A DNA stretch of 64,000 nucleotides, taken from positions 64,001 through 128,000 of the IMG/VR virus record IMGVR_UViG_3300020577_009322; one strand, 5' to 3'. Position numbers and translations under genes: made by a program. The DNA is from a virus. Its lineage: Duplodnaviria > Caudoviricetes. Of this stretch, positions 2,038-41,036 are shown one piece after another. Every line of letters starts with the position of its first letter. The first letter of the stretch is position 1. The notes under the pieces were generated by a model. That model worked only from the letters and a program-made list of their open reading frames with translations, did not search any database and was not told where the DNA came from.

Positions 2038-2110
2038 GGGGTCTCATACAAGATTCGAACTTGTGATCTTCTCCATCAAGGAGATGAGTTCCCACTTCTC
2101 CAATGGACCC
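2038..2110 (-). pseudogene. Degenerate tRNA (5-nt anticodon loop)
   Basis: Acceptor-like stem, D-arm, T-arm acaag-TTCGAAT-cttgt; anticodon stem tctcc/ggaga encloses only ttgat. Confidence 0.55.
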
Positions 2111-34662: not shown

Positions 34663-35634
34663 ATGCCTTGTAATACAACACCTTGTGATGATAAATGTTT
34701 ACCTTATAATCCATGTTATGATGATTGTGGTTGTTTAAACCCAACTACTTTTGAGTGTGTAACAAAACCTGGAACATGGCCTGCATTAGGAATTACTAAT
34801 GATATGAATGGGGTAGAGGCTTTAGAAGCCTTAAATACCGTTATTAATAATTTAACTATAACCCCGCCATCTCCTGGATCAGACGTTTATGTTAAAGCTA
34901 CATCTGCAGATACAACTGCAAACTACCTTTCTAGTAAGTTAGTAGTTGGAGCATTTTTAACAAAAACAATAGTAAATCCGTCAGGAAATGAACAAATTCG
35001 TCTGAATGTTTCACCTGCAGCCTTGGTTTCTTCTGATTCTGGAAATATTCTAGATATAGGAACTGATGGAAAATTACGTGCTATAGTTACTGTTCCTTTA
35101 CCTGATATTTCAGTAGTTGGAGGAAGTGGTGTAACTGTTACAGGAACAGGTCCATCATCAGATCCTTTTGTTGTATCAATAAATCCATCAATAGAAGTAG
35201 TAAGAAATTGCTTTGATAATGTATGGAGAGATGTTACATTAGTTGCTACAGGAAATGCTAATGTTGTTTATGTTAGTGGAATTCCAAAATATCGTTATCG
35301 TTTTGATGGAACAATAGAATTTAAAGGATCAGCAACTTATACTGTAGCTTTTGGAGCATATTCTACAGGAAATAGAAAATATACAATAACAATTGGGAAT
35401 ATTCCAACAACATGTGTAACATCAGGTGAGCAAGCGGGAGTATCTGACCTGAAGAATATCAATTATATAGATGTACCACAAGCTGGTGCAGATCAAATAA
35501 CGCAACAATATGGGTATATTATTAGAAAATCAACAGCCAATCTAATAGTAGAATTTCAGTCTTCTTTTACCTCATCAACAAGTAAAACAATTGTTGTTAA
35601 CTTCGAGGGAGCTATATCATACCCATCTCTTTAA
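34663..35634 (+). CDS. Putative tail fibre protein
   Basis: Cys-rich N-terminus; fibre-type segments. Confidence 0.6.
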   Translation: MPCNTTPCDDKCLPYNPCYDDCGCLNPTTFECVTKPGTWPALGITNDMNGVEALEALNTVINNLTITPPSPGSDVYVKATSADTTANYLSSKLVVGAFLTKTIVNPSGNEQIRLNVSPAALVSSDSGNILDIGTDGKLRAIVTVPLPDISVVGGSGVTVTGTGPSSDPFVVSINPSIEVVRNCFDNVWRDVTLVATGNANVVYVSGIPKYRYRFDGTIEFKGSATYTVAFGAYSTGNRKYTITIGNIPTTCVTSGEQAGVSDLKNINYIDVPQAGADQITQQYGYIIRKSTANLIVEFQSSFTSSTSKTIVVNFEGAISYPSL

Positions 35635-35670
35635 AAACTCGTGGTTAGTTGGTTCTCCACAAAATGAGTT

Positions 35671-35697
35671 AACGATCCGTTTCTACGGGTCGTTTTT
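35671..35697 (+). terminator. Intrinsic terminator ending the structural operon
   Basis: aacgatccgt-ttct-acgggtcgtt-ttt. Confidence 0.8.
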
Positions 35698-35710
35698 ACT
35701 TTAAAATAAA

Positions 35711-35742
35711 TTTGGTAAATTAAAAATAAAATCGTATATTTG
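35711..35742 (+). promoter_or_regulatory. Bacteroidota-type promoter for tRNA block 1
   Basis: TTTG-N20-TATATTTG. Confidence 0.8.
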
Positions 35743-35746
35743 CACT

Positions 35747-35824
35747 ATGAAAGCAGTAGAAAAATTGTATGGCTGCGGTTGTGGTAAACCAAAACCAGTA
35801 GTGGTTAAACCACCTTCAAGATAA
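35747..35824 (+). CDS. Micropeptide MKAVEKLYGCGCGKPKPVVVKPPSR
   Basis: Directly after the promoter. Confidence 0.45.
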   Translation: MKAVEKLYGCGCGKPKPVVVKPPSR

Positions 35825-35835
35825 AAATAAAAACT

Positions 35836-35922
35836 ATGATAACAGTAAATCATGCATGGCCCATCTTTACGCAATGTCCAACAGGACAATGTGAGGGACT
35901 GTGTACGTGTATTAAGAATTAA
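35836..35922 (+). CDS. Attenuator leader peptide 1 (MITVNHAWPIFTQCPTGQCEGLCTCIKN)
   Basis: H/W/P/F/T/Q/C codons match downstream tRNAs; contains the antiterminator strand. Confidence 0.75.
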   Translation: MITVNHAWPIFTQCPTGQCEGLCTCIKN

Positions 35923-35942
35923 CTCTTAACCACAACCGAACT

Positions 35943-35970
35943 AACCCCTCCATAAAAAGAGGGGTTTTTT
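35943..35970 (+). terminator. Attenuator terminator 1
   Basis: aacccctc/gaggggtt plus T-run, 5 nt before tRNA-Pro. Confidence 0.85.
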
Positions 35971-35975
35971 ATTAT

Positions 35976-36050
35976 CTAGATGTTCCACAGTTGGTTATAT
36001 GGGCTTGCCCTGGAAGCAAGTGTTCGTCAGTTCGAATCTGACCATCTAGA
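35976..36050 (+). tRNA. trnP: tRNA-Pro(UGG)
   Basis: cttgc-ccTGGaa-gcaag; cloverleaf. Confidence 0.85.
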
Positions 36051-36053
36051 CAT

Positions 36054-36125
36054 GCTTTCTTAATAGTAATGGTAGCTACTCTGTTTTGTAATCAGAAAGT
36101 GTCAGTTCGAGTCTGACAGAAAGCT
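36054..36125 (+). tRNA. trnT: tRNA-Thr(UGU)
   Basis: tctgt-ttTGTaa-tcaga. Confidence 0.8.
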
Positions 36126-36133
36126 CTTAACTT

Positions 36134-36205
36134 GGTCCTTTGGGTGAGTGGTTTAACTATTAGTCTGCAAAACTAATTACAGCAGTTCGAATCTGCTAGG
36201 GACCT
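36134..36205 (+). tRNA. trnC: tRNA-Cys(GCA)
   Basis: ttagt-ctGCAaa-actaa. Confidence 0.9.
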
Positions 36206-36274
36206 CAAAGGCTTGTCCTTGAAACAACCTTCCCGTGGAGGGAACTGTAAGACAGTTTAAATAAGAGGATAGCT

Positions 36275-36346
36275 GGAAATATAACTCAGTTGGTAGAGTG
36301 CCAGATTGAAGATCTGGTTGCATCAGTTCGATTCTGATTATTTCCA
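36275..36346 (+). tRNA. trnF: tRNA-Phe(GAA)
   Basis: ccaga-ttGAAga-tctgg. Confidence 0.9.
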
Positions 36347-36351
36347 CATAT

Positions 36352-36423
36352 ACGTGTGTAGTGTAGTTGGTAACACAGCAGTCTCCAAAACTGTATTCAC
36401 CTGTTCGAATCGGGTCATACGTG
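36352..36423 (+). tRNA. trnW: tRNA-Trp(CCA)
   Basis: gcagt-ctCCAaa-actgt. Confidence 0.9.
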
Positions 36424-36428
36424 CTTAT

Positions 36429-36499
36429 TTTCTTGTAGTGTAATGGTAACACATGAGATTTTGGCTCTCATATTTTAGGTTCGAGTCCTAACAAGAAAA
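36429..36499 (+). tRNA. trnQ: tRNA-Gln(UUG)
   Basis: tgaga-ttTTGgc-tctca. Confidence 0.9.
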
Positions 36500-36501
36500 C
36501 T

Positions 36502-36575
36502 GGTGATTATAGCATAATGGTAGTGCAAAAGTTTGTGAAGCTTACAGGTGGGAGTTCGAATCTCCTTAGTCACCC
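36502..36575 (+). tRNA. trnH: tRNA-His(GUG)
   Basis: aaagt-ttGTGaa-gctta; G-1. Confidence 0.85.
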
Positions 36576-36581
36576 TTATAA

Positions 36582-36657
36582 ACTCCGTTAGCTAAACTGG
36601 ATACGGCACCAGAATACGAATCTGGAGATTTTGAGGGTTCGAATCCTTCACGGAGTA
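36582..36657 (+). tRNA. trnR: tRNA-Arg(ACG)
   Basis: ccaga-atACGaa-tctgg. Confidence 0.9.
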
Positions 36658-36952
36658 CAATTTTAAATAATAATTTTCCTAAAATAAAATATATACTATA
36701 TCTTTGTTCTATGATAGGAAAAATAATAAAATCAGATATGAAATCTAGGATCAGTTATAATATAACTGGTTTAGATAAGGGAATATTATTTGTTAATAAA
36801 AATACATCATCATTATCTCCAGATGGATATGAAGGAAAATGTCCACAAGGGGAACTATTTAACAATAATGGAAATAGTTGGAGATCGAGTTGTTGATAGA
36901 GGGAGACTTTCTATAGAAGTAGATGAGAATGGATATGTTACTATAAAATAAA

Positions 36953-36984
36953 TTTGGTAATTGTTAAAAATAGTTGTATATTTG
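36953..36984 (+). promoter_or_regulatory. Bacteroidota-type promoter upstream of tRNA block 2
   Basis: TTTG-N20-TATATTTG. Confidence 0.8.
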
Positions 36985-37027
36985 TGCTGCACTGACCAAG
37001 TAGGCGTGTTACTAAAAATATACAAAC

Positions 37028-37333
37028 ATGAAGAGTACAATTAGAGTGGACTTTCAGGGTCCGGAGACATCGTCTCAAAATGGTTTTGAACCAGTTATTA
37101 GAGTAAATTTAGTAGAAAGTGATGACACACGAGATAAGTTACTAAAGACATTCTTTCAGTCATTAGGTGGAGAAAGTTCCTGGCTACATGTAAAACATGT
37201 AAAAATTGATCAATCGTGTCATTCTGGATTAATTAATGATAGTATAGTAATTACTCCAGTAAAAGAGGCTGATATTGAGAACTTGAAGAAAGAGATAGAA
37301 GATAGAATAAATGATAAGAGAAATATTTTTTAA
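37028..37333 (+). CDS. Hypothetical protein
   Basis: ORF track, after the promoter. Confidence 0.7.
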   Translation: MKSTIRVDFQGPETSSQNGFEPVIRVNLVESDDTRDKLLKTFFQSLGGESSWLHVKHVKIDQSCHSGLINDSIVITPVKEADIENLKKEIEDRINDKRNIF

Positions 37334-37350
37334 ACCTTAAATATAATAAT

Positions 37351-37461
37351 ATGATAATAGGATTAATTATTAGTGGAGTAGTGGGTTTCATAGTTGGAGC
37401 CTTGGTATTTAGAAATAATGCTAAAAAGGGAGAAGAAATTATTGATAATCTTAAAAAGTAA
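37351..37461 (+). CDS. Small single-TM protein MIIGLIISGVVGFIVGALVFRNNAKKGEEIIDNLKK
   Basis: Manual translation. Confidence 0.65.
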   Translation: MIIGLIISGVVGFIVGALVFRNNAKKGEEIIDNLKK

Positions 37462-37473
37462 TAAAGACAACTA

Positions 37474-37542
37474 ATGCAACAATTTTATATGATAGTTAGA
37501 AATATTTTAGGGGCGGATGAAAAATCTGGCTCTAGGGAATAA
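37474..37542 (+). CDS. Attenuator leader peptide 2 (MQQFYMIVRNILGADEKSGSRE)
   Basis: Run M-I(ATA)-V-R(AGA)-N-I(ATT)-L-G-A-D-E-K matches block 2 tRNAs; 3' end holds the antiterminator gctctaggg. Confidence 0.8.
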   Translation: MQQFYMIVRNILGADEKSGSRE

Positions 37543-37567
37543 TTTTACTATCTTATAATAGAAAGTT

Positions 37568-37604
37568 AACCCTGGAGCATATTAAGCTTCAGGGTTTTTC
37601 TTTT
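37568..37604 (+). terminator. Attenuator terminator 2
   Basis: aaccctggagc-atattaa-gcttcagggtt plus T-run, just before tRNA-Lys. Confidence 0.88.
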
Positions 37605-37609
37605 AAAAT

Positions 37610-37684
37610 ACCTTCGTAGCAAAATGTGGCTTTGCTCCTGACTTTTAATCAGAACAAAAATGGGTTCGACTTCCTTCGAAGGTA
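37610..37684 (+). tRNA. trnK: tRNA-Lys(UUU)
   Basis: cctga-ctTTTaa-tcaga. Confidence 0.8.
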
Positions 37685-37687
37685 CTT

Positions 37688-37762
37688 GGGATCTTAGCAA
37701 AAATGATATTTCTTCAGCCTCTTAAGCTGAATAAAAGTAGAGTTCGATTCTCACAGATCCCA
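37688..37762 (+). tRNA. trnK: tRNA-Lys(CUU)
   Basis: tcagc-ctCTTaa-gctga; atypical D-arm. Confidence 0.75.
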
Positions 37763-37772
37763 CATAAGTATA

Positions 37773-37804
37773 TTTGGTGGTTCGAAAATTATTTCGTATA
37801 TTTG
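37773..37804 (+). promoter_or_regulatory. Bacteroidota-type promoter of the HNH gene
   Basis: TTTG-N20-TATATTTG. Confidence 0.75.
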
Positions 37805-37808
37805 ATAT

Positions 37809-38339
37809 ATGAAAGAAAGAATAGAACAATTAAGAAAAGAAGGAAAAAGTTATAGTGAAATATCAAAGATAACTGGATTAGTCAAATCTACAATATCATA
37901 CTATGTAGGAAATAGAACTGGAAAAGGTAAGCTAACAGCTGAAAAAAGAAATTGTAGAAATTGTGAAAAAGAAATCAGTTCTCCAAAAGTTTTCTGTGAT
38001 AAAAAATGTGATTTTGAATATAAACAGAAACTTAGGTTAGATAAATTTGAAAAAAGCAATTTGTGTACAAATAATTCTATTAGAAAAGCACTTATTTCTA
38101 TAAATGGAAATAAATGCAGTATTTGTGAAATCTCTGAAATATGGAATGATAGGAAATTAACTATGCATGTAGATCATATTGATGGAAATTCTGATAATAA
38201 TGATAATAAAAATGTTAGATTAGTATGTCCTAATTGTCATTCTCAACTAGAAACATCTAAAAATAAAGTTAAAAAACAAACAAAAAGAAATAAATACTTA
38301 AGAAAATACAAAGGTTATATAGATGCCCCTGTCGTATAG
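37809..38339 (+). CDS. HNH homing endonuclease with N-terminal HTH, inserted in the tRNA array
   Basis: HVDHIDGN..N...NVRLVCPNCHSQ. Confidence 0.9.
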   Translation: MKERIEQLRKEGKSYSEISKITGLVKSTISYYVGNRTGKGKLTAEKRNCRNCEKEISSPKVFCDKKCDFEYKQKLRLDKFEKSNLCTNNSIRKALISINGNKCSICEISEIWNDRKLTMHVDHIDGNSDNNDNKNVRLVCPNCHSQLETSKNKVKKQTKRNKYLRKYKGYIDAPVV

Positions 38340-38397
38340 TGATTTAATATCTCTCTCTTACAAAGAGAAGACGGCAGTTTGATTCTGCACAGGGGTA
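38325..38397 (+). tRNA. trnV: tRNA-Val(UAC)
   Basis: tctct-ctTACaa-agaga; overlaps HNH stop. Confidence 0.8.
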
Positions 38398-38402
38398 CAA
38401 AT

Positions 38403-38474
38403 GGTTCTATAGTGTAATGATTAGCACAACTCTCTTCTAAAGAGTTAGTATAAGTTTGACCCTTGTTAGGACTA
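38403..38474 (+). tRNA. trnR: tRNA-Arg(UCU)
   Basis: actct-ctTCTaa-agagt. Confidence 0.75.
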
Positions 38475-38514
38475 CAGATGAGTTACCCTTCTCCGTGTAT
38501 TAAAAAGGGATAAT

Positions 38515-38589
38515 GTCTGAATAGCTGAGTTGGTTTCAAGCACTTGACTGTTAATCAAGAGTAGTTGGGTTCGATCCCCAAATCAGACG
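38515..38589 (+). tRNA. trnN: tRNA-Asn(GUU)
   Basis: cttga-ctGTTaa-tcaag. Confidence 0.9.
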
Positions 38590-38595
38590 CTTTAT

Positions 38596-38666
38596 TGTGC
38601 GGTGGTGTAATGGTAGCATATTGGGCTCATAACCCAATGATGAAAGTTCGACTCTTTCCTGCGCAA
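38596..38666 (+). tRNA. trnM: tRNA-Met(CAU), initiator-like anticodon stem
   Basis: ttggg-ctCATaa-cccaa (three consecutive G:C pairs). Confidence 0.85.
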
Positions 38667-38669
38667 CTT

Positions 38670-38885
38670 ATGAAAAATTACATAGAAGATCAAATTAGAA
38701 AAGGTTACAGGGTATACGACCTTAAAGAAATACTCGGAGAAACACCAATGCAATCAGATATAGATAATTTGATTGAAAAATTAGGTCCTAATAAGTTAGG
38801 TGAAGTTGATGAAAATGGTTATCTTTACGTGAAAACAGATCAATCGTGGAGAAATATTTTAGGACAGCGGATGGAGAAATGGTGA
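38670..38885 (+). CDS. Hypothetical protein (start MKNYIEDQ)
   Basis: Track ORF N-terminus overlaps tRNAs; ATG right after tRNA-Met. Confidence 0.6.
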   Translation: MKNYIEDQIRKGYRVYDLKEILGETPMQSDIDNLIEKLGPNKLGEVDENGYLYVKTDQSWRNILGQRMEKW

Positions 38886-39319
38886 ATATAATCTCTCACT
38901 GTAGAGAAATATTAGCAAAAGAACCAGATGCTAAGATATTAATTGGAACTGACTCACAGGATGAGGATGGAAAAAGTAAGTATTGTACTGTAATAGTATT
39001 TAGATATGGATTACGTGGTGCTCACTTTATCTACAGTAAGGATGATAGGAAAAAGATAAGAGATATTTTCACTCGTTTATTTACTGAGTGTGAGTACTCA
39101 CTAGAAATTGCTGAGCATATAACTAAGAATACTAGTTATAAAGTATCAACAATAGAGTTAGATTTCAATGATTTCAAGAAGACAAAATCAACACCTTTAA
39201 TATCAGCAACAAAGGGATGGTGTGAATCTTTAGGTTACTCAGCTACTCTAAAAAGTGGTGAAATGTTTGCTTGTAAAGCAGCAGATCATATCCTAAGACA
39301 TCCATCATTATATAAATAA
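38846..39319 (+). CDS. RNase H-like YkuK (DUF458) family protein
   Basis: LIGTDSQ, RLFTE, IELDFN, CKAADH. Confidence 0.8.
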   Translation: MEKYFRTADGEMVNIISHCREILAKEPDAKILIGTDSQDEDGKSKYCTVIVFRYGLRGAHFIYSKDDRKKIRDIFTRLFTECEYSLEIAEHITKNTSYKVSTIELDFNDFKKTKSTPLISATKGWCESLGYSATLKSGEMFACKAADHILRHPSLYK

Positions 39320-39347
39320 TACTTTCAAACAAAAATAAATTTAGTAA

Positions 39348-39421
39348 GCAGTATACGCATAAATGGTGGTGCACCAGTCTTCCAAATTGGAATAGAGTCA
39401 GTTCGATCCTGACATGCTGCA
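39348..39421 (+). tRNA. trnG: tRNA-Gly(UCC)
   Basis: ccagt-ctTCCaa-attgg. Confidence 0.85.
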
Positions 39422-39483
39422 CCCTTAAGAGAGATTAAATAAAGTCTGCAGCTTTTGGCCAATATTGGTTCTCTCTTTTGCAG

Positions 39484-39555
39484 GGCCCTTTCGTCTAATG
39501 TGTAGGACGACGCTCTTTCCAAGCGTAGATTTCGGTTCGAATCCGTGAGGGGCTA
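39484..39555 (+). tRNA. trnE: tRNA-Glu(UUC)
   Basis: acgct-ctTTCca-agcgt. Confidence 0.85.
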
Positions 39556-39561
39556 CAATAA

Positions 39562-39635
39562 GGTCTATGGATGTGGCAGGGTGTGGCTACTGGATTGTCA
39601 ATCCAGGGAGACGGGTTCGATCCCCGTATAGACCG
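39562..39635 (+). tRNA. trnD: tRNA-Asp(GUC)
   Basis: ctgga-ttGTCaa-tccag. Confidence 0.85.
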
Positions 39636-39692
39636 CAACGAGGAACATGGTAATTCATGTCTGAGGCTGAAAGAAGCAATCCCCTCGTCTAT

Positions 39693-39765
39693 GCTTCTAT
39701 AGCTCAATGGTCAGAGCAGGACGCTTATATCGTCAAGGTTTCCAGTTCGAGTCTGGATAGAAGTA
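39693..39765 (+). tRNA. trnI: tRNA-Ile(UAU)
   Basis: ggacg-ctTATat-cgtca. Confidence 0.8.
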
Positions 39766-39770
39766 CATAT

Positions 39771-39843
39771 TGGAGTGTAGCTCAAATGGTAGAGCGCCTG
39801 CCTGATACGCAGGAGGTACAGGGATCGTTACCCTGCATTCCAA
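39771..39843 (+). tRNA. trnI: tRNA-Ile(GAU)
   Basis: cctgc-ctGATac-gcagg. Confidence 0.85.
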
Positions 39844-39970
39844 CGGAGTGTTACGCATAGCCTCTCAACGATGTAGCGTTTCTCCTCGGTAGCCCGTCGA
39901 CGTAATCCGAGACAGTTCATTACCTAATAAGAATGAGTTAGGGAGATATGGGAAACCTGCTCCCGATTTT

Positions 39971-40043
39971 GGGGATAAAGCTCTAGTGGATGAGCATCTG
40001 CCTTGCACGCAGAAGGTTAGGAATTCGAGTTTCCTTATCTCCA
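39971..40043 (+). tRNA. trnA: tRNA-Ala(UGC)
   Basis: tctgc-ctTGCac-gcaga; G3:U70. Confidence 0.9.
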
Positions 40044-40089
40044 CAAATAAATTTGGTAAATATAAATATTTGTAGTATTATATAATATA

Positions 40090-40161
40090 ATGAAGAAACT
40101 ATATACATATTATTCGTTAAGTCTCTTGTCCTTAAATGGACTAGCTAGGAATACTATGTGA
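40090..40161 (+). CDS. Attenuator leader peptide 3 (MKKLYTYYSLSLLSLNGLARNTM)
   Basis: 11 of 12 consecutive codons are Leu/Tyr/Ser, matching block 3 tRNAs; contains the antiterminator agctagga. Confidence 0.8.
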   Translation: MKKLYTYYSLSLLSLNGLARNTM

Positions 40162-40192
40162 TAACAGTGGGCAATCGTTAGATCATTCGTGT

Positions 40193-40223
40193 AAATCCTG
40201 GCTTTAATTAGTCAGGATTTTTT
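40193..40223 (+). terminator. Attenuator terminator 3
   Basis: aaatcctggct-ttaatt-agtcaggattt plus T-run, just before tRNA-Leu. Confidence 0.88.
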
Positions 40224-40227
40224 ATTT

Positions 40228-40301
40228 GTGGGTATGGCGGAATTGGAATACGCAACAGGTTTAGACCCTGAAATTTAAGAGTTCGAGTCTCTTTACCCAT
40301 A
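40228..40301 (+). tRNA. trnL: tRNA-Leu(UAG), short variable arm
   Basis: acagg-ttTAGac-cctga. Confidence 0.85.
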
Positions 40302-40307
40302 CTATAT

Positions 40308-40381
40308 GTCCTTGTGATGGAATTGGAATACATGTCAGACTTAAAATCTGAATTTTACGGGTTCGAGTCCCGTCTTGGACA
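40308..40381 (+). tRNA. trnL: tRNA-Leu(UAA), short variable arm
   Basis: tcaga-ctTAAaa-tctga. Confidence 0.85.
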
Positions 40382-40386
40382 CATAA

Positions 40387-40469
40387 GGAAGAGCGCATTG
40401 TGAGAGCTTATCCGTCCTGAAAACGGTGAAGGTGTAATAGCTGTGAGAGTTCGATTCTCTCCTCTTCCG
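40387..40469 (+). tRNA. trnS: tRNA-Ser(UGA)
   Basis: tccgt-ccTGAaa-acggt; long variable arm; atypical D-arm. Confidence 0.8.
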
Positions 40470-40474
40470 CTTAT

Positions 40475-40557
40475 AGAGAAATGACAGAGTGGTAATGTAG
40501 CAGTTTGCTAAACTGTAGATGGTAACACATCCGTGAGTTCGATCCTCACTTTCTCTG
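40475..40557 (+). tRNA. trnS: tRNA-Ser(GCU)
   Basis: gcagt-ttGCTaa-actgt; long variable arm. Confidence 0.9.
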
Positions 40558-40562
40558 CAGAT

Positions 40563-40646
40563 GGGTATGATGGTAAATGTGGTTAAATCAGGAGACTGTA
40601 AATCTCTCGTCATTAGACTGTTGGAGTTCGATTCTGTACATACCCA
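40563..40646 (+). tRNA. trnY: tRNA-Tyr(GUA)
   Basis: ggaga-ctGTAaa-tctct. Confidence 0.9.
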
Positions 40647-40662
40647 CAATTATTTTTTTATT

Positions 40663-40706
40663 TAAATGGAGTCTTGTACCTTTGTTGGGCTAAGACTCCA
40701 TTTTTT
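40663..40706 (+). terminator. Terminator ending the tRNA array
   Basis: aaatggagtctt/aagactccattt plus T-run. Confidence 0.8.
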
Positions 40707-40853
40707 GTTCAGGCAGGAGGATACACTATGAAAATAGTGCTACTACGTCTAAGGATGCTTATGTCCCCTAAGTAGATTGGGAGGGGGCTGGGGGGTGGGT
40801 CAGAAAATAAATTAAAAATAAATTTCGCTATATCAAATATTCATTGTAACTTT

Positions 40854-41036
40854 GTGGAAACAAAACAGAAAAATATGACAAAGAAAATTACAGAACACTT
40901 GAAAAGAAACAACAGTTATTTTAAATGGTCAGCTAAAAGATTAGCAGATAAGTTTGGTTGTTCAGAAAGAACTATCACAAATATTATCAAGACTCTTGCA
41001 CCAGTTAAGAGAACTTATTTAAATAACTTAAAGTAA
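40854..41036 (+). CDS. Small HTH protein
   Basis: SAKRLADKFGCSERTI. Confidence 0.7.
   Translation: METKQKNMTKKITEHLKRNNSYFKWSAKRLADKFGCSERTITNIIKTLAPVKRTYLNNLK

Follow-up and report, generated by a model that had tools for sequence, protein, structure and literature searches.

Three predicted leader-peptide attenuators upstream of the tRNA gene blocks of a crAss-like phage

RESULTS

A phage tRNA array consists of three blocks, each preceded by a short ORF and a terminator

We analyzed a 64,000-nucleotide window of a 155-kb phage genome with a GC content of 31.6%. The region at 42537-44175 matches the families PF25702 CrAss_Ring_2 (3.3e-20) and PF24228 CrAss_Ring_1 (2.3e-7), which are also present in the genomes of the relatives described below. 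Based on the crAss tail ring proteins and the gene order, the genome is classified as crAss-like (Crassvirales). Using ARAGORN, we identified 24 tRNA genes on the + strand between 35976 and 40647, and Rfam detected a weak 25th tRNA-like element at 40387-40468 (24.8 bits), the counterparts of which in relatives are called as Ser-TGA at a lowered calling threshold. The array covers all 20 amino acids. With the weak element included, this agrees with a first-pass annotation made from the sequence alone, which had described 25 tRNAs for all 20 amino acids in three blocks.

The region contains 14 terminator-like sites, compared to 3.9 expected. Within the array, the only such hairpins on the + strand are at 35943-35966, 37568-37596, and 40193-40220, and each is located 8-13 nt upstream of the first tRNA gene of a block. 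This distance leaves no room for a promoter, and therefore, transcription of the tRNA genes requires read-through. All three strong intrinsic terminators are preceded by a short leader ORF that ends approximately 20-30 nt upstream; these ORFs have 28, 22, and 23 codons, in line with the 22-28 codons previously noted. Thus, the layout of leader ORF, terminator, and tRNA block is repeated three times. A hairpin followed by a T tract, read from the sequence, closes the array at 40665-40706. All cassette features described below, as well as the ORFs upstream of the leaders, are on the + strand.

Elsewhere in the genome, three isolated tRNA genes are located on the opposite strand, and two of these lie directly behind terminator hairpins. 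A codon-matched leader was found at none of the three. As two of them follow hairpins without a matched leader, a terminator beside a tRNA gene is not specific by itself.

Leader ORFs list the amino acids of the downstream tRNA block

Cassette 1 starts with a promoter-like site of the Bacteroidota type (TTTG, approximately 19 nt, TAnnTTTG; P1, 35711-35742) identified in a pattern scan; motifs of this type are also found 5' of the leader cassettes of relatives. A small ORF of 25 codons (L0, 35747-35824) separates P1 from leader 1; it is rich in Gly/Cys and then in Lys/Pro, is kept in the relative L094, and is fused with leader 1 in the relative L090. Leader ORF 1 (35836-35922) contains a codon run at 35851-35892 for His, Trp, Pro, Phe, Thr, Gln, and Cys, i.e., seven of the eight amino acids of block 1 (Pro-TGG, Thr-TGT, Cys-GCA, Phe-GAA, Trp-CCA, Gln-TTG, His-GTG, and Arg-ACG; 35976-36658). 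Terminator 1 (35943-35972) has an 8-bp G+C-rich stem and a T tract. A strand inside leader ORF 1 (35892-35898) is predicted to pair with the 5' arm of terminator 1 and would thus act as antiterminator; at −8.5 kcal/mol (z −1.7), this duplex is the weakest of the three in the window and is stronger in relatives.

In cassette 2, the pattern scan identified a promoter-like site (P2) at 36953-36984, and leader 2 comes third among the ORFs of its operon and is not promoter proximal. It follows two co-oriented ORFs, one for a 101-aa protein of an uncharacterized family (37028-37333), which is also encoded directly 5' of leader cassettes in relatives, and one for a 36-aa hydrophobic peptide (37351-37461). 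The run in leader ORF 2 (37474-37542) spans 37489-37524 and has codons for Met, Ile (ATA and ATT), Val, Arg (AGA), Asn, Gly, Ala, Asp, Glu, and Lys, interrupted by one block-foreign Leu. In this way, the run includes every amino acid, 10 in total, for which block 2 has a tRNA (Lys-TTT, Lys-CTT, Val-TAC, Arg-TCT, Asn-GTT, Met-CAT, Gly-TCC, Glu-TTC, Asp-GTC, Ile-TAT, Ile-GAT, and Ala-TGC; 37610-40044). The predicted antiterminator strand (37528-37551; core, 37529-37537) could pair with the 5' arm of terminator 2 (37568-37602; 11-bp stem and T tract) with a duplex energy of −20.7 kcal/mol (z −5.1) or, alternatively, with the codon-run region to form a 1:2 hairpin. The 12 tRNA genes are all located behind leader 2, as the first-pass annotation had it; however, they are not contiguous, and the block is split by an ORF for an HNH endonuclease (37809-38339) and by ORFs at 38670-38885 and 38846-39319 (PF04308). 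A further promoter-like site from the pattern scan, 5' of the HNH ORF (37773-37804), could allow 10 of the 12 tRNA genes to bypass attenuator 2.

Cassette 3 has a promoter-like site (P3, 40052-40085) with a good −33 element and a weaker −7 element, which was read from the sequence and coincides with a promoter scan row at 40053-40081. Leader ORF 3 (40090-40161) has a run at 40099-40134 for Leu (CTA, TTA, CTC, and TTG), Tyr, and Ser (TCG, AGT, and TCC), with one block-foreign Thr, and covers all three amino acids of block 3 (Leu-TAG, Leu-TAA, the Ser-TGA-like element, Ser-GCT, and Tyr-GTA; 40228-40647). The antiterminator strand predicted inside this ORF (40142-40151) gives a duplex of −12.3 kcal/mol (z −2.7) with terminator 3 (40193-40226; 11-bp stem and T tract). 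Thus, the reported complementarity between the 3' part of each leader and the 5' arm of its terminator is present in all three cassettes.

The claimed correspondence between leader and block holds for all three leaders, and it is imperfect. Leader 1 lacks an Arg codon, although block 1 includes Arg-ACG, and each leader has a few block-foreign residues, which in leader 1 are Ala, Ile, Gly, Val, and Asn. In simulations that scored run length and coverage using small-ORF residue frequencies, P values for leaders 1, 2, and 3 were 1.2e-3, 3e-5, and 1.7e-4, respectively; the corresponding ranges were 1.2e-3 to 2.8e-4, 3e-5 to 1.1e-3, and ≤1.7e-4. Beyond amino acid identity, the leader codons largely fit the anticodons of the block, as for ATA and ATT with Ile-TAT and Ile-GAT, AGA with Arg-TCT, and CTA, TTA, AGT, TCG, and TAT in leader 3. 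Most codons occur once and not in tandem, mostly with one or two codons per tRNA of the block, and consequently, sensitivity may be modest.

Leader composition co-varies with tRNA content in diverged relatives

For comparison, we used 19 cassettes from 10 genomes, i.e., the window phage and nine diverged crAss-like metagenome relatives, the neighboring proteins of which are approximately 40-60% identical. All three cassette types are present in L090/L092 and L094. In leader 2 of L090 and of L094, 13 consecutive own-block residues include each of the 10 block-2 amino acids, and leader 1 of L090 likewise has an unbroken run with all 8 amino acids of block 1; the residue order in these runs is unlike that in the window. 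Where blocks differ, leaders differ accordingly. In L098, a Thr/Trp/Cys run precedes a block with only Cys, Trp, and Thr tRNAs, while in L099, a nine-residue run has exactly Gln, Phe, His, Trp, Pro, and Cys and is followed by exactly those six tRNAs. The 14-residue run of L100 additionally contains Ile, Lys, and Asn, as does its block, and an eight-residue run in L107 covers all seven tRNAs of the block. L096 fits less well: its leader 1 has Cys codons and its leader 2 lists Asp, Ile, and Ala, while the search of its blocks did not identify a Cys tRNA or tRNAs for Asp, Ile, and Ala, respectively, and the match of leader 2 is not significant alone. As a negative control, we searched the tRNA array of crAss001, a cultured Bacteroides phage (MH675552, 1683-5807), and found no leader/terminator cassettes; this array starts directly after a promoter-like site.

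Simulated P values across cassettes ranged from 1e-3 to below 5e-6. Permuting the block assignment over all 19 cassettes, which are homologous between genomes and therefore not independent samples, gave a P value of <5e-5, a result that held when we took the best ORF from whichever frame, and permutation of the block-1-type leaders alone gave 0.003-0.006. Arg codons are also split: those in the core of leader 1 are CGC or CGT in four of five cases, with Arg-ACG downstream, and those in the core of leader 2 are AGA in seven of seven, with Arg-TCT downstream, while CGN makes up 24% of Arg codons genome-wide. The match between leader codons and downstream tRNAs is thus non-random, and leader content co-varies with block content in the nine relatives.

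These observations bear on the possibility that the small ORFs encode functional micropeptides, e.g., a Cys-rich product of leader 1, with the terminators being ordinary operon ends or insulators and the likeness in composition incidental. In favor of it, leader-1 peptides have Gly-Leu-Cys-like residues in common toward the C terminus, ORF L0 is conserved, and some isolated tRNAs in the genome follow terminators without matched leaders. However, the residues conserved at the C terminus are encoded where the antiterminator strand lies, and within the runs, the amino acid set is conserved and the residue order is not. Moreover, the set changes along with the tRNA block in L098, L099, L100, and L107, the permutation result stands against an incidental likeness, and the 8-13 nt between terminator and tRNA cannot accommodate a promoter, so that the tRNAs depend on read-through. 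We consider this explanation highly improbable.

Alternative helices and their geometry are conserved

Complementarity between the 3' part of the leader and the 5' arm of the terminator reaches significance in 17 of the 19 cassettes (median z, −3.2), and the antiterminator sequences differ between cassettes while the pairing is kept. Among 30 terminators ranked genome-wide for upstream complementarity, the three in the array take ranks 1, 2, and 5. In a four-genome alignment, terminator 2 is 100% paired with five compensatory pairs, antiterminator 2 is 94% paired with two compensatory pairs, and one column covaries with both its terminator and its antiterminator partner. Based on minimum free energy, the leader regions fold far better than shuffled sequences (z −4.5, −7.0, and −3.3 for cassettes 1, 2, and 3, respectively).

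We also folded the leaders with a ribosome mask, which is a thermodynamic model only. In nearly all cassettes, the terminator arm was sequestered with the A site on the run and freed one to three codons past the run. In some runs, the last one to three codons fall outside this permissive window; these codons (e.g., Glu and Lys in leader 2) are too near the antiterminator strand, and a ribosome stalled there should mask it.

In about half of the cassettes, and unlike in trp, folding indicates that naked RNA already forms the antiterminator. This default, together with the tRNAs located directly behind hairpins elsewhere in the genome, would suit terminators that are leaky, or hairpins that serve processing or stability at the 5' end of a tRNA precursor, with leader ORFs that only load ribosomes for coupling or protection and do not sense codons. 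Such an arrangement leaves the codon-to-tRNA match, the co-variation, the Arg codon split, and the position of the run relative to the antiterminator strand unexplained, and we find it very improbable.

DISCUSSION

The codon-to-tRNA match, its co-variation across relatives, and the compensatory changes in both helices support the attenuator logic put forward in the first-pass annotation. It is very likely, from comparative sequence analysis, that the three cassettes are ribosome-mediated (leader-peptide) transcription attenuators that each gate one phage tRNA block. Host-type RNA polymerase would initiate at a Bacteroidota-type promoter, and a ribosome would translate the short leader ORF, in which the codon run would serve as an inventory of the codons that the tRNAs in the downstream block decode. 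With a shortage of usable charged tRNA, the ribosome would stall in the run, the 3' part of the ORF would remain free and pair with the 5' arm of the terminator, and polymerase would read through into the tRNA block. With fast decoding, the ribosome would cover the antiterminator strand and the terminator would form ahead of the first tRNA gene. The net effect would be a multivalent negative feedback, in which a block is on if its own codons are slowly decoded and off if supply is sufficient. In Salmonella, mutation of hisR or hisT leads to derepression of the his operon, which indicates that leader-peptide attenuators respond to the amount and quality of tRNA and not to the amino acid alone.

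The cassettes share the hardware of described attenuators: an upstream short ORF, enrichment of cognate codons, a terminator, a mutually exclusive antiterminator, and, in the folding model, a suitable stall geometry. As in ilvGMEDA (Ile/Leu/Val), thr (Thr/Ile), trpL, hisL, pheL, and leuL, a leader with regulatory codons, here predicted to be translated, precedes an intrinsic terminator, the antiterminator shares the 5' arm of the terminator, and ribosome position would select the helix; as in ilvGMEDA and thr, one leader would sense several amino acids. All described members of the family control biosynthesis, transport, or synthetase genes, those of the enterobacterial amino acid operons controlling biosynthetic enzymes, whereas the cargo here is tRNA genes. 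The phage cassettes would therefore work like the leader-peptide family and differ by cargo. They also differ from enterobacterial attenuators in listing up to 10 amino acids, mostly once or twice, rather than tandem repeats of one to three; in that their output would feed directly back on the sensed quantity, decoding capacity; and in that the host is presumably a member of the Bacteroidota and several of the leaders either look leaderless or come after other small ORFs. In Escherichia coli, pheST (pheM leader) likewise places a component of the translation apparatus under leader-peptide attenuation; however, it controls phenylalanyl-tRNA synthetase and senses one amino acid. T-box riboswitches also report the state of a specific tRNA by transcription antitermination, but they bind uncharged tRNA directly, via a specifier codon and the T-box motif, without translation, whereas the proposed sensor here is the ribosome. 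An Rfam scan of 35400-41000 at E values up to 1 identified no T-box (RF00230) or other cis-regulator, the only hits being of the tRNA type or chance plastid motifs, and we rejected a T-box identity on this basis.

Clustered tRNA genes amid homing endonuclease ORFs are also found in crAss001 and T4. Transcription of the T4 cluster yields a precursor that is then processed, and we know of no attenuator reported for it. The first-pass annotation knew of no description of attenuation controlling phage tRNA genes; likewise, we found no published account of leader-peptide attenuation on tRNA genes in the literature searched. By its sequence features, the mechanism is classic ribosome-mediated attenuation, while the tRNA cargo and the inventory-type leader are new to that literature.

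Feedback, codon mismatch, and tRNA-cleaving defense may each act as trigger, and the scenario of anticodon-nuclease defense or starvation in the first-pass annotation is one among these several candidates. With tRNA-cleaving defense as trigger, the purpose would be inducible counter-defense rather than plain supply feedback: the leader would sense stalling caused by host defense through anticodon nucleases or similar effectors that target particular host tRNAs for cleavage, and it would induce the replacement block. Substitution for host tRNAs that become cleaved or depleted in the infected cell is a known role of phage tRNAs, a leader that lists all tRNAs of its block, most of them by one or two codons, suits detecting the loss of any single species, and none of our analyses contradicts this purpose. 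We nevertheless regard it as possible but less likely than not, since no defense or anti-defense gene was linked to the cassettes, the array covers all 20 amino acids while known anticodon nucleases hit a few species, and feedback on the A/T-rich codon demand of the phage explains the design without defense. Under leader-peptide attenuation, each tRNA block is probably made only when ribosomes slowly decode the codons of that block. Should counter-defense be its purpose, the cassettes would constitute a ribosome-based damage sensor of the tRNA pool that switches on exactly the replacement block.

Three leader-terminator-tRNA cassettes in the array

The phage contig that includes the window is 155,463 bp long with a G+C content of 31.6% and encodes the crAss-type tail ring proteins PF25702 and PF24228. 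Using ARAGORN, we identified 24 tRNA genes on the plus strand at 35976-40647. A 25th, weak tRNA-like element is located at 40387-40468, and its counterparts in relatives are called as Ser-TGA at a lowered threshold; together, the 24 tRNAs and this element represent all 20 amino acids. Only three terminator-like hairpins map to the plus strand within the array (35943-35966, 37568-37596, and 40193-40220), and in all three the next tRNA follows at a distance of 8-13 nt. Each hairpin is preceded by a short ORF on the same strand, i.e., leader 1 (35836-35922; 28 codons), leader 2 (37474-37542; 22 codons), and leader 3 (40090-40161; 23 codons). The first-pass annotation had described three cassettes of this type, and the ORFs, hairpins, and tRNAs were all located as described, while four corrections to the description are needed. 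Block 2 is broken up by an HNH homing-endonuclease ORF (37809-38339, between Lys-CTT and Val-TAC) and two other ORFs. A promoter-like site (37773-37804) precedes the HNH ORF, and leader 2 comes third among the ORFs of a small operon. The proposed match between the residues of a leader and the tRNAs of its block is strong but imperfect.

In the relative L094, the HNH gene has a different position, after terminator 2 and before the first Lys tRNA, and the block 2 tRNAs run without a break from Lys to Met; therefore, the interruption of block 2 by the HNH ORF looks secondary. The arrays of relatives contain endonuclease ORFs (HNH, LAGLIDADG, and Endonuclease VII) in differing gaps.

Four inter-tRNA spacers of 56-126 nt (36207-36274, 39424-39483, 39637-39692, and 39845-39970) gave no tRNA call and may represent small RNAs or decayed tRNAs. 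The spacer between Cys and Phe has counterparts in L094 and in L090, the locus of another relative, with a similar 3' end (GTGAAAAA, followed by a G-rich stretch). Both Leu tRNAs in block 3 (40228-40382) are only 75 nt long and lack a long variable arm, as also observed in L094, while the L090 genome has a Leu-TAA of 87 nt; in other respects, block 3 (Leu, Ser, and Tyr) corresponds to the bacterial long-arm tRNA set. The opposite genomic strand encodes three isolated tRNAs; two follow terminator hairpins, and none has a matched leader. tRNA-Ser(TGA) (2038-2109, minus strand) immediately follows a strong terminator-like hairpin and lacks a codon-matched leader, the same holds for Leu-GAG elsewhere in the genome, and Arg-TCT has no hairpin upstream.

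Leader codons match the tRNAs of the downstream block

The codon run of leader 1 specifies His, Trp, Pro, Phe, Thr, Gln, and Cys, i.e., seven of the eight amino acids of block 1, with Arg absent. In leader 2, a 12-codon stretch covers all 10 block 2 amino acids plus one foreign Leu; in it, the two Ile tRNAs are represented by both ATA and ATT, and Arg-TCT by AGA. The run of leader 3 is made up of codons for Leu, Ser, and Tyr (CTA, TTA, TTG, TCG, AGT, and TAT), in keeping with Leu-TAG, Leu-TAA, Ser-TGA, Ser-GCT, and Tyr-GTA. Each run carries some residues foreign to its own block. In simulations with random peptides of the same length and residue frequencies from small ORFs of the phage genome, the chance of the observed run length and coverage was 1.2e-3, 3e-5, and 1.7e-4 for leaders 1, 2, and 3, respectively.

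Leader composition follows block composition in relatives

Near and protein-level searches using the array and the 101-aa protein encoded upstream of leader 2 identified no relative among GenBank phages. One syntenic array in IMG/VR, L090 (extended by L092), was reached through a neighboring structural protein; it remained the sole useful contig in IMG/VR scans with a 157-aa protein encoded within the array, the 101-aa protein, family alignments, and an antiterminator DNA motif. Metagenomic contigs with members of the 101-aa family provided eight further loci with tRNAs, giving a set of 19 cassettes from 10 genomes. In L102 and L104, the 101-aa family protein is present and tRNAs were not found. 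Among 80 loci of relatives recovered through the DNA-polymerase exonuclease gene, no tRNA array was found near that gene, and one relative has tRNAs without cassettes.

In close syntenic genomes, the three leader types are kept and the residue order within them is reshuffled. Leader 2 of both L090 and L094 contains 13 consecutive own-block residues that cover 10 of 10 block 2 amino acids, and leader 1 of L090 contains 13 such residues that cover 8 of 8 block 1 amino acids, including Arg. In distant genomes, the tRNA blocks differ and the leaders differ to match. Thus, L098 has the run TTTWCT upstream of Cys, Trp, and Thr tRNAs; in L099, a nine-residue run names exactly the six amino acids of the block (Pro, Phe, Cys, Gln, His, and Trp); the L100/L101 block comprises these six plus Asn, Lys, Met, and Ile, and its 14-residue run adds Ile, Lys, and Asn; and in L107, an eight-residue run names all seven tRNAs of the block. 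The leaders of L096 name amino acids whose tRNAs were not found there. The match extends to codon choice for Arg: CGC or CGT is present in four of five leader 1 cores, upstream of Arg-ACG, and AGA in seven of seven leader 2 cores, upstream of Arg-TCT, with CGN making up only 24% of Arg codons genome-wide.

When block assignment was shuffled among the 19 leaders, the observed score was reached 0 times in 20,000 trials, and this result was unchanged when the best ORF in any frame was permitted for every assignment. Because the cassettes are homologous, they are not 19 independent draws; with the shuffle restricted to the ten leaders of the block 1 type, p was 0.003-0.006.

The leaders are predicted to form mutually exclusive RNA structures

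The three leader regions of the window fold far better than shuffled sequences (z = -4.5, -7.0, and -3.3). With terminators in relatives identified by folding 55 nt upstream of each tRNA, the 3' segment of the leader ORF is significantly complementary to the 5' arm of the terminator in 17 of 19 cassettes (median z of -3.2), and this pairing is kept although the sequences differ among genomes. Among 30 terminator-like hairpins genome-wide, those behind the three leaders hold ranks 1, 2, and 5 for upstream complementarity. In an alignment of the leader 2 switches from four genomes (the two most distant of six members misaligned and were left out), terminator pairing holds in 100% of the cells and includes five compensatory pairs; for the antiterminator, the figures are 94% and two. 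One column covaries with both alternative partners.

We also moved a 28-nt ribosome mask along the nascent transcript one codon at a time and folded the RNA at each position. In nearly all cassettes, the terminator arm is sequestered with the A site on the codon run and is freed 1-3 codons past the end of the run. In leader 2 of the window, the run region pairs additionally with the antiterminator strand, which gives the full 1:2, 2:3, and 3:4 arrangement as in the trp attenuator.

Genes neighboring the cassettes

The 101-aa protein (37028-37333) belongs to an uncharacterized family of 60 metagenomic members without a match in Pfam or PHROG. Its predicted fold is strand-strand-helix-strand-strand-helix (pLDDT 78.6), and a comparison with PDB gave no convincing match (best TM of about 0.3). 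The gene is repeatedly located directly 5' of a cassette (window, L092, L094, L098-L101, and L105-L107), preceding leader 2 in the window and leader 3 in the L090 genome. A 13-nt motif, TGACCAAGTAGGC, is identical in the 5' untranslated regions of the gene in the window (36993-37005) and in L092 (minus strand), and may be a conserved RNA element; the two proteins are only 45% identical.

Within the array, 38846-39319 encodes a 157-aa PF04308 (RNaseH_like) protein (E = 6.4e-19), and at least six relatives (L094, L096, L106, L107, and two further contigs) have a homolog in the equivalent position; the protein may function in tRNA processing or as another enzyme related to tRNA. Upstream of leader 1, a small ORF, L0 (35747-35824), starts 4-5 nt past a -7 promoter element and encodes Gly-Cys-Gly-Cys-Gly followed by a Lys/Pro-rich stretch. 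L0 is conserved in L094, is fused in frame to leader 1 in L090, and may have a loading or pausing role for leader 1. Several leaders begin right behind a -7 box, in the manner of leaderless genes. At 36711-36951, between block 1 and the promoter-like site P2 (36953-36984), two ORFs of 61 and 53 aa overlap in different frames and may represent a frameshifted or decaying gene.

Proposed mechanism and comparison with known attenuators

Each cassette has an upstream match to the Bacteroidota-type promoter consensus of the Bacteroides literature (TTTG, about 19 nt, and TAnnTTTG); this promoter type points to the host RNA polymerase. From sequence, the cassettes are best read as ribosome-mediated attenuators that very probably gate the tRNA blocks. 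Fast decoding would let the ribosome mask the antiterminator strand, and transcription would end immediately ahead of the first tRNA; a ribosome slowed at any codon of the run would preserve the antiterminator, and polymerase would proceed into the tRNA block. The ribosome would thus gauge decoding speed for a defined codon set and the phage would respond with the matching tRNAs in a closed feedback loop. Since the product of a cassette is the tRNA itself, this feedback on decoding capacity would be direct and negative. The his operon leader responds to the amount and quality of tRNA, beyond the amino acid alone, as in hisR and hisT mutants. Slow decoding could be triggered by the A/T-rich codon demand of the phage early in infection, by starvation, or by tRNA-cutting host nucleases. 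The promoter-like site ahead of the HNH ORF may bypass attenuator 2 for most block 2 tRNAs.

At the sequence level, the phage cassettes share every defining feature of leader-peptide attenuators, and differ solely in cargo: all described examples known to us control biosynthetic, transport, or synthetase genes, whereas the cassettes carry tRNA genes. Among known systems, the nearest are the multivalent leaders of ilvGMEDA and thr and the leader of pheST. T-box riboswitches likewise sense tRNA, but without translation; an Rfam scan of the region detected no T-box motif, and we rejected T-boxes and other Rfam cis-regulators. Searches of the full-text literature outside subscription journals yielded no report of tRNA genes, in phages or otherwise, being controlled by attenuation. 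In the cultured relative crAss001, a Bacteroides phage, the tRNA array (MH675552; 1683-5807) begins directly after a promoter-like site and has no leader-terminator cassette, which argues that the design is lineage-specific rather than general for such arrays. The crAss001 array is a useful negative control. Judged from sequence and comparison, the regulatory design is real and statistically strong, and the cassettes are a new variant of a known attenuation mechanism.

Phage tRNA genes are usually viewed as constitutive cargo that offsets codon-usage mismatch or replaces cleaved host tRNAs. Here, classic attenuator logic would be applied to the tRNA genes themselves, and leader-peptide attenuation could take the form of an inventory that lists up to ten amino acids. 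A leader whose composition equals the downstream tRNA set is a sequence signature with which any genome can be screened, and the cassettes would be compact natural parts to sense tRNA availability. With these cassettes, the idea that phages sense tRNA depletion by host defenses becomes testable.
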